From the NCBI RefSeq assembly GCF_028368995.1, contig NZ_JAQNDL010000002.1, positions 832,001-896,000 on the forward strand: 64,000 nucleotides of DNA. Direction: 5' to 3'. Both the position numbers and the translations under genes were made by a program. Positions 44,270 to 44,630 of the stretch are shown one piece after another; position 1 is the stretch's first letter; each line of letters opens with the position of its first letter. The notes beneath the pieces were generated by a model, which did no database searches, was not told the origin of the DNA, and saw only the letters and a list, made by a program, of their open reading frames with translations. This DNA comes from Nannocystis bainbridge (GTDB lineage Bacteria; Myxococcota_A; Polyangia; Nannocystales; Nannocystaceae).

Positions 44270-44630
44270 ACGAGGTGAGCCCGACGCGGCGAAGCCTCCA
44301 GAACTTCGGGGAGGCCGAGGGTCCCTGGGGCTTCGAGCCCGGTAGCGAGTGTGGTCCCCCGAAGTTCGATCTCGATTTTTCTTGGATGATTGTGGGGCTG
44401 CGGACTCAAATCGGCCCCACCGCTGCCGGGTTCGTAAGCTGTCGTACCGCCGTTTCTTCCTTCGCAGGGCGAGACTTCTCGGAGGACTTCGAGAGGCCGT
44501 GGGTCCCTGGGGCAGCGAGCCCGCGCGTGAGACGAGGCCCCGAAGTTCGAGTTTGACCTCAAGAGCCCGGACAACTGCATGAGCGTCAGCCAGCTCGAAT
44601 CCTACAAGGGTGGGCGGTAGGTCAAGCGAA
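44270..44630 (+). ncRNA. IS110 bridge RNA region (two target-loop-like modules plus one donor loop)
   Basis: Guide TGGGTCCCT (44500) plus GCGCG (44523) match flanks; ACAACTGC (44571) plus TACAAG (44603) match donor junction; boundaries approximate. Confidence 0.85.

Follow-up and report, generated by a model that had tools for sequence, protein, structure and literature searches.

The bridge RNAs characterized in the literature that we found, cited throughout from the accessible portions of each source, carry one target loop per donor loop, and the locus described here raises the question of whether one IS110-family insertion sequence (IS) can carry, and use, two target loops. The element in question belongs to Nannocystis bainbridge (RefSeq assembly GCF_028368995.1) and lies in a stretch of 64,000 nucleotides of contig NZ_JAQNDL010000002.1 (positions 832,001 to 896,000; hereafter the window, whose own numbering is used below, all features of the element being on the plus strand). 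Its left end encodes two homologous target-binding-loop (TBL) modules, designated A and B, and one donor-binding loop. This architecture is real; the anatomy, its conservation and the matches between guides and insertion-site flanks are matters of observation. It is proposed that the element specifies a bridge RNA with two usable target loops, both of which are working guides, a reading to which we assign a probability of roughly 0.5.

Comparison of the three copies of the element in the source genome, coupled with inspection of their junctions, delimits the window copy to 44256..45658 (1403 bp, inclusive of the right-hand CT core). At the left junction, host DNA comprising the left target half TGGGTCC (44247-53) and the core CT (44254-55; together 44247..44255) is joined to the element terminus TGTATG. 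At the right junction, the left donor half ACAACTG (45650-56) and a second CT (45657-58), which together form the right terminus of the element (45650..45658), are followed by the right target half of the host, CGCGCC (45659..45664). The empty target reconstructs to TGGGTCC-CT-CGCGCC and the circle junction to ACAACTG-CT-TGTAT, both of which had been deduced in an earlier interpretation of the locus made without database searches (the sequence-only reading) and are corroborated by the junction sequences and by the orthologous site of a same-genus genome, G035 (72% identical flank), which reads TGGGTCC-CA-CGCGCGC. Because this orthologue is free of the IS and holds the dinucleotide only once, the element boundaries and the reconstructed target are considered sound. 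A CT core was present at every junction available across the eight copies or fragments recovered from two species (one of which, g38d, is without a right end). As is characteristic of IS110, the 2-bp core is single in the empty site and flanks the inserted element on either side, and classical terminal inverted repeats are lacking.

The gene at 44669..45640 encodes a 323-amino-acid protein with the Pfam domains PF01548 (DEDD_Tnp_IS110; E 7.5e-23) and PF02371 (Transposase_20; E 8.1e-18), and it matches the NCBIfam model NF033542, "IS110 family RNA-guided transposase," with 216 bits against a cut-off of 140. The protein aligns over nearly its full length with the transposases of ISCro4 (residues 3-313) and IS621 (4-313), at E values of approximately 1e-32, and the motifs GIDV, EAS, KTDKID and DSG line up in the ISCro4 alignment. 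Since the catalytic residues of IS621 are D11, E60, D102, D105 and S241 (Hiraizumi 2024), these motifs are read, by IS621 residue numbering, as the catalytic positions. Domain content and alignment mark the transposase as a genuine RNA-guided enzyme of the IS110 family. Guide RNAs are encoded at the left end in the IS110 group and at the right end in the IS1111 group. In the present element, a noncoding left end of 413 nt (44256-44668) precedes the gene, and the right end is confined to 18 nt (45641-45658); this long, guide-bearing left end upstream of the recombinase gene conforms to the IS110 group. At the sequence level, the element possesses the hallmarks of IS110-group bridge recombinases, with a circle-junction promoter that is a candidate (see below), save the layout of one target loop and one donor loop.

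The left end consists of a leader (44256-44299), TBL module A (44300..44368), a spacer of 114 nt (44369..44482) with a T-run at 44376-80, TBL module B (44483..44549) and the donor-binding loop (44553..44625), the modules being defined by their alignment and by local folds and the donor loop by sequence and local fold. A second homologous module upstream of the one beside the donor loop had already been proposed in the sequence-only reading, and this is upheld by a mean column identity of 81% between the stretches that hold modules A and B (44290-44380 and 44474-44560, respectively), within which a 31-nt repeat is 90% identical. Both modules are built from an outer stem of 8 to 11 bp, an inner GGCC helix, the heptamer GAGGCCG, a 9-nt guide and an apical GGGC/GCCC stem, after which come GAGCCCG, an 8-nt guide ending in AG, two further bases and the 3′ arm of the outer stem. 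In module A, the outer stem is formed by 44301-11/44357-67, the inner helix by GGCC/GGUC and the apical stem by GGGCU/AGCCC; in module B, the outer stem is formed by 44484-91/44541-48. Module B lies directly upstream of the donor loop, as does the single TBL of related elements, which is built on the same scaffold, and the 5′ context of module A is homologous to the 5′ context of that single TBL. The canonical position of module B together with the homologous 5′ context of module A is what a tandem loop duplication would leave.

Four copies of the heptamer GAGCCCG are present in the left end, namely, in the leader (44278-84), before each right target guide (44335-41 and 44517-23) and before the left donor guide (44563-69), and GAGGCCG stands before both left target guides. 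Many relatives harbor two such heptamers approximately 44 nt apart upstream of the gene. GAGCCCG/GAGGCCG may represent a recombinase recognition motif.

The donor loop is closed by the stem TTGACCT (44553-59)/AGGTCAA (44619-25). Its left donor guide, ACAACUGC (44571-78; ACAACTGC as DNA), matches ACAACTG-C of the right end, and its right donor guide, UACAAG (44603-08), corresponds in reverse complement to the CT-TGTA of the left end; stem and guides (TACAAG as DNA) are as described in the sequence-only reading. The loop thereby matches the junction of the element's own right and left ends, as expected of the IS110 group. It also carries the dinucleotide GG (44609-10), a predicted handshake, which is complementary to the CC that ends every left target observed; the donor-loop handshake guide of IS621 occupies the equivalent place (Hiraizumi 2024).

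The left target guides are AGGGUCCCU in module A (44318..44326; AGGGTCCCT as DNA) and UGGGUCCCU in module B (44500..44508; TGGGTCCCT as DNA), the latter exactly where it had been placed previously. The right guides had been taken as the five bases immediately after the apical stem (GGTAG in module A and GCGCG in module B), an assignment that is out of register by comparison with IS621, whose right target guide (RTG) ends with two core-binding bases (Durrant 2024), and with single-loop relatives, in which the 8-nt stretch behind GAGCCCG closes with AG and matches the core and the right flank. At locus L146, for instance, the sequence TCAGGCAG has the reverse complement CT-GCCTGA, to be compared with a flank of CT-GCCTGG, and the left guide of this locus covaries with its left flank relative to L041. 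Because IS621 and the single-loop relatives share this register, the RTG is defined here as the 8 nt after GAGCCCG, ending in a core-binding AG. In module A, the RTG is GUAGCGAG (44342-49; reverse complement CT-CGCTAC), followed by the handshake dinucleotide UG (44342..44351 in total), and in module B it is CGCGUGAG (44524-31; reverse complement CT-CACGCG), followed by AC (44524..44533 in total). The corrected register gives module A the target AGGGTCC-CT-CGCTAC instead of one ending in CTACC. The previously predicted target, AGGGTCCCTCTACC, has no occurrence in the genome and was dropped on account of the register error; at the corrected target, a copy of the IS is found. Between the module B RTG and CT-CGCGC, 7 bp can form, one of them an rU:dG wobble. 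The two loops had been credited with different targets, but the corrected targets are similar, sharing GGGTCC-CT-C.C and differing mainly at right-target positions 4 to 6.

The insertion sites of all copies were compared with both modules. The source genome holds three copies, of which two are identical and the third differs by 4 substitutions (2 in the spacer and 2 in the gene); their targets are TGGGTCC-CT-CGCGCC (c1, the window copy), CGGGCCC-CT-CGCTCG (c2) and CGGGTCC-CT-CGCTAC (c3, at C1:555912). A sister Nannocystis species (G038) holds five (g38a to g38e), of which three are full copies of 89% identity, another is a fragment and the remaining one has an internal deletion. Both modules are present in all three copies of the source genome and in all five copies or fragments of the sister species, and the loss of the upstream module in relatives, which would have spoken against the proposal, was not seen in these copies. 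Within G038, g38a and g38d carry UUAGCGAG as the right guide of module A and UGGGUCCCU as the left guide of module B, and g38b, g38c and g38e carry UUCGCGAG and AGGUUCCCU, respectively, in these places. Copy c3 and all five G038 copies are inserted at the same place in an element of approximately 230 bp with terminal inverted repeats, resembling a repetitive extragenic palindrome (REP) or a miniature inverted-repeat transposable element (MITE), which is the preferred landing site of the IS in both Nannocystis genomes. The source genome holds approximately ten members of this REP/MITE-like family (e.g., C4:156535-156834, C4:158053, C4:34705, C1:1956585 and C2:57301). The terminal inverted repeats of the family read GACGGCGGGCACGGAGCGGCGGAG ... 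CTCCGCCGCTCCGTGCCCGCC, and its members vary at the positions read by the module A right guide.

Each of the 1,108,759 CT sites of the source genome, with the three IS copies removed in silico, was scored against each module. The c3 site proved to be the best module A match of all when no credit was given to wobble pairs and one of the best two when they were given half credit; the left guide matches at 8 of 9 positions and the right guide at 8 of 8, an exact match to the right flank. The module A left guide matches GGGTCC-CT in seven of the eight insertion sites, and right-target position 4 follows the module A guide in six of the seven sites whose right flank is known, a guide T corresponding to c2, c3 and g38a and a guide G to g38b, g38c and g38e. 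At the three G-type sites, module B likewise specifies G at position 4, and discrimination there comes from the left guide (6/7 for module A versus 5/7 for module B) and from position 5. To the extent that sequence alone can tell, module A serves as a target guide.

The sole exception to this pattern among the seven sites is the window copy, which fits module B. The left guide of module B matches the window site at 9 of 9 positions and its right guide forms 7 contiguous pairs, one of them a wobble, such that the site ranks among the top 9 to 10 of 1.1 million for module B (the top 349 if a wobble is counted as a full match). For module A, the same site scores 10/13 and ranks within the top 110 to 6388, depending on the weight given to wobbles; among sites at least as good for module A, only 0.3 to 0.9% equal the fit of the window site to module B. 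Of the two flank classes that had been expected among further copies, the source genome shows an A-type site at c3 and a single B-type site at the window copy; in G038, module A fits all five sites as well as or better than module B.

The conservation of module B lends it further support. Between the source genome and G038, module B differs at 6 of 67 positions (9%), module A at 2 to 4 of 69, the donor loop at 4 to 5 of 81 and the coding sequence (CDS) at approximately 9%, compared with 25 to 27 mismatches in approximately 91 aligned positions of the spacer (approximately 27%), together with 23 to 24 gaps; the difference in divergence between module B and the spacer is significant (Fisher test, p = 0.004). 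Module B is, by this measure, under constraint, like the gene. The duplication dates back at least to the 11% divergence that separates the copies of the two species. The idea of a naturally multiplexed guide RNA is partly supported, in that the layout is kept in the sister species and copies sit at sites among the best matches of each module; its weak part is module B, whose use rests on one insertion. The alternative idea voiced at the outset, that the locus is a snapshot of target reprogramming by loop duplication, may apply.

A number of observations weigh against the use of both loops. Besides the single insertion just mentioned, the A and B guides are similar, leaving little room for a test, and the scoring was chosen after the sites had been seen. 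None of the five G038 copies occupies a site matching the variant module B guide AGGTTCCCT of g38b, g38c and g38e, for which the predicted target has no exact site in G038 and six sites with one mismatch, none of them occupied. Module A alone accounts for 5/5 sites in G038 and 2/3 in the source genome as well as or better than module B. The handshake AC of module B cannot pair with the donor (…TG), to which the handshake CA of single-loop relatives pairs perfectly and the UG of module A pairs by two wobbles, and the outer stem of module B has a 2×2 mismatch in g38a and g38d. Copies within one genome and between sister species are, moreover, not independent observations.

From these observations, it could be argued that only module A works and that module B is a leftover of the duplication or a superseded ancestral loop, the fit to the window site being a coincidence or that site an off-target of module A. 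Such an explanation would draw on the ability of module A to explain seven of eight sites at GGGTCC-CT-CGC and to act as the best or an equal guide at every G038 site, on its residual 10/13 fit to the window site, on the unpaired handshake and imperfect outer stem of module B and on the want of an insertion matching the g38b-type guide. Against it speak a module B that is conserved like the CDS beside a spacer that is not, that occupies the usual place of a TBL, directly before the donor loop, and whose only outer-stem change in g38b improves a G:U pair to G:C, together with the small fraction of equally A-fitting sites that equal the window site in their fit to module B. We consider this explanation unlikely, without dismissing it.

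A further option is that module B is retained for a role other than guiding, be it as a recombinase-binding decoy, as an autoregulatory leader structure or as a partner in donor-loop presentation, with its guides free to drift. The scaffold is indeed kept while the left guide has changed (T to A and G to T in g38b, g38c and g38e), the drifted guides match no insertion and the handshake does not pair with the donor. A change of similar kind is found in a soil-metagenome variant of approximately 90% likeness (runs X1, X2 and X4), in which the core-binding C of the module B left guide (44507) is replaced by T (…CCTT); the right guide of this variant carries the G038-type C at 44528. Against a role of this kind, the module B guides of the source genome fit a real insertion over 9/9 positions plus 7 bp, the position before the donor loop is normally that of the guide, as in single-loop relatives, and no decoy role for IS110 is reported in the accessible parts of the bridge-RNA literature found. 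A nonguide function for module B appears distinctly improbable on balance.

Folding supports the modular anatomy. Local folds gave a stem, an internal loop and a second stem for all three modules, with z scores of only -1.1 to -2.6, and when 13 modules from six genomes are aligned, the share of pairing cells is 73.7%, compared with 63.1% in shuffled alignments, none of 500 of which reached the former value; 9 of the 15 outer-helix pairs change on both sides. The covariation and folding analysis that had been suggested as a check came out in favor of the modules. The minimum free energy fold of the whole left end was uninformative (z = -1.0, with guides pairing with one another). A long-range pairing between the 5′ arm of module A and the 3′ arm of module B is possible in the source genome and is lost in G038, and it was discarded as a conserved fold. 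An Rfam search of 43800-46000 returned 12 matches at E ≤ 10, all far under their gathering scores and none related to IS110. A covariance model (R1) was built including modules A and B, whose scores under it (75.4 and 76.4 bits, respectively) are high by construction.

With regard to expression, a -10-like hexamer, TATGTT (44258..44263), lies at the left end and a -35-like hexamer, TTGACG (45637..45642), overlaps the stop codon at the right end; both were read by eye, come together only in the excised circle, at a spacing of 18 nt, and recur without change in the four G038 copies in which neither end is missing. As a promoter formed at the circle junction by a -35 element of the right end and a -10 element of the left end is the rule in IS110 (Durrant 2024), TTGACG-18 nt-TATGTT is regarded as a candidate circle-junction promoter.

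Should both loops be active, the following sequence of events can be envisaged, in which transcription, the loading of either loop and the activity of loop B are what we infer. Excision would join the right-end -35 to the left-end -10 at the circle junction, and transcription would proceed from approximately 44270 through module A, the spacer, module B, the donor loop and the transposase gene. The recombinase tetramer would then take up one target loop and one donor loop, with either A or B occupying the target-binding dimer. Loop A (AGGGUCCCU/GUAGCGAG) would direct insertion beside the inverted repeat of the REP/MITE-like element, at xGGGTCC-CT-CGC(T/G)A, and loop B (UGGGUCCCU/CGCGUGAG) at xGGGTCC-CT-C(G/A)CGC sites, such as that of the window. 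At the T-run behind module A, some transcripts may terminate or undergo processing, yielding a TBL-only RNA as in CazIS110-1, for which Sun et al. (bioRxiv 2025.10.25.684509) report a natural TBL-only RNA that is approximately 10-fold more abundant than the bridge RNA and acts in the first transfer step. This account, a bridge RNA of bispecific target choice, delivered in a single transcript with three loops or divided between a TBL-only RNA and a full bridge RNA, is put forward at slightly less than even odds. Its transcriptional steps meet with further adverse points: a promoter and terminator scan of the left end called neither a promoter-like site nor a terminator following module A, the T-run begins 9 nt beyond the module A stem, and no public RNA run was found to contain the sequence of the element.

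The same T-run invites a division of labor between two RNAs, whereby a short leader-plus-A TBL-only RNA would carry out most of the target capture and an RNA of module B and the donor loop would serve excision and the second-strand steps, in effect a two-RNA "direct transfer" pathway encoded within one element. The T-run follows module A in the source genome and in G038, and a U6 run stands 2 nt after the corresponding stem in an independent element of another Nannocystis genome (G037; see below); the upstream module best fits the insertion site in both of these two-module lineages, and the abundance and first-transfer activity of the CazIS110-1 TBL-only RNA are in keeping with such a pathway. 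On the other hand, the scan called no terminator and the search of public RNA runs gave no transcript of the sequence, and, in the accessible text of the preprint, one TBL sequence is common to both RNAs, whereas here the guides differ. We rate this two-RNA arrangement as very unlikely.

Returning to the proposal of two working guides, the distribution of the layout among relatives indicates that it is rare. No further close copies were found beyond the source genome and G038 in 73 family genomes, a 401-genome class sample and genome and metagenome contigs, and the next relatives share at most 58% protein identity. The nearest of these (L041/G042, L038/G039, L039/G041 and L145 to L147; 50 to 58%) carry one TBL each. 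Across the genus, R1 returned only its own source sequences and their copies. A covariance-model search of 100 further loci (38 to 58% identity) yielded none with two full plus-strand matches at E ≤ 0.01 and 72 matches at E ≤ 1. A self-similarity scan of the left ends of 43 relatives and a GAGCCCG count over 141 loci found the module repeated only in the G038 locus. A soil-metagenome contig (X2, record 9) holds both modules around an unlike 85-nt spacer; the four soil-metagenome runs gave contig pieces only.

A second two-module IS110 element was identified in Nannocystis genome G037 (locus L008, 300-1625; G037:C2:7938023-7939348), with a transposase of 44% identity. It presents two TBL-like modules, the first followed by the U6 run, and one donor loop; the upstream module fits its insertion site (ACATGTC-CT), and the guide of the second is without a CT core match. 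The transposase gene is broken by two frameshifts and spread over three reading frames. Because the L008 modules share a GATC inner helix and those of N. bainbridge share GGCC, the two duplications look independent, and this second lineage hints that the layout evolved more than once. L008 is inserted in a GGACATGTCC palindrome, and genome G036 holds only fragments of this type (L121 and L127), beside arrays of a CTGTCCCTCGGGACAG palindrome. In a contig of a Gemmatimonadales metagenome-assembled genome (L080, 909-1097), the first 93 nt of an IS110 left end are exactly tandem-duplicated; the repeated stretch takes in the terminus and the greater part of the TBL and breaks off within the right guide. 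The duplication has the look of a recent tandem or nested event, could be a self-insertion or a nested copy, and is possibly a first step towards a two-loop left end.

A sequence of approximately 20 nt (AGATCCCGGACAACGATCCG) is repeated four to five times, in direct and inverted orientation, in an array that closely precedes the insertion site of the window copy (44099-44210), and after it come two or three GGGTCCCAATT-like motifs. The array is kept at the orthologous site of G035 and looks like a set of iterons or a partition site. Downstream are genes for a ParB helix-turn-helix domain protein (46517-48550) and an rve-type integrase (49278-51023).

If both loops do guide, one recombinase and one donor loop can be aimed at two classes of sites, the recombinase tolerates an extra loop in cis, and one donor can be sent to two addresses from one RNA, all of which would be of interest because bridge recombinases are under development as programmable genome-rearrangement tools. 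Duplication of a loop followed by divergence of its guides would then be a natural route to new targets without loss of the old one, that is, a duplicate-then-diverge path for retargeting with no inactive intermediate. The element is also a natural test case for the role reported for TBL-only RNAs. If only module A works, the locus amounts to a modest note on the evolution of IS110 left ends.

The single-loop relatives are among the closest known systems, sharing the termini TGTATG...ACAACTGCT, the TBL and donor-loop scaffold including GAGCCCG, and the guide register, but they differ in having one TBL directly before the donor loop, a left end of approximately 200 nt (about half as long) and other targets. 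The variants on record in the accessible literature comprise two-loop RNAs, the multiloop donor binding of IS1111, longer guides and a truncated TBL-only RNA (Durrant 2024, Hiraizumi 2024, Sun 2025, Evo-PIN); a second encoded target loop is not described in the accessible sections of these papers, figures and supplements aside, and literature searches on more than one target-binding loop and on Nannocystis and IS110 found no relevant paper. The TBL-only RNA of CazIS110-1 resembles the arrangement proposed here in that a separate target-loop RNA occurs alongside the full bridge RNA and participates in transposition; as far as the preprint is accessible, however, it is a truncated bridge RNA with the same guides, whereas the second loop of the Nannocystis element is separately encoded and carries other guides. 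IS621 shares with the Nannocystis element a DEDD/Ser recombinase aligning over nearly its full length (E 1.6e-32), the CT core, a left-end guide RNA, modules of stem, internal loop and stem, handshake dinucleotides and a preference for a repeated extragenic element, and in both the left guide is same-sense to the left flank and core and the right guide complementary to the core and right flank. The right guides are 8 nt long in the Nannocystis element, compared with 4 nt (extendable to 7) in IS621, and, where IS621 has one target loop and one donor loop in a left end of approximately 190 nt (Durrant 2024, Hiraizumi 2024), the left end of the Nannocystis element extends to 413 nt, with a second target loop and a 114-nt spacer.

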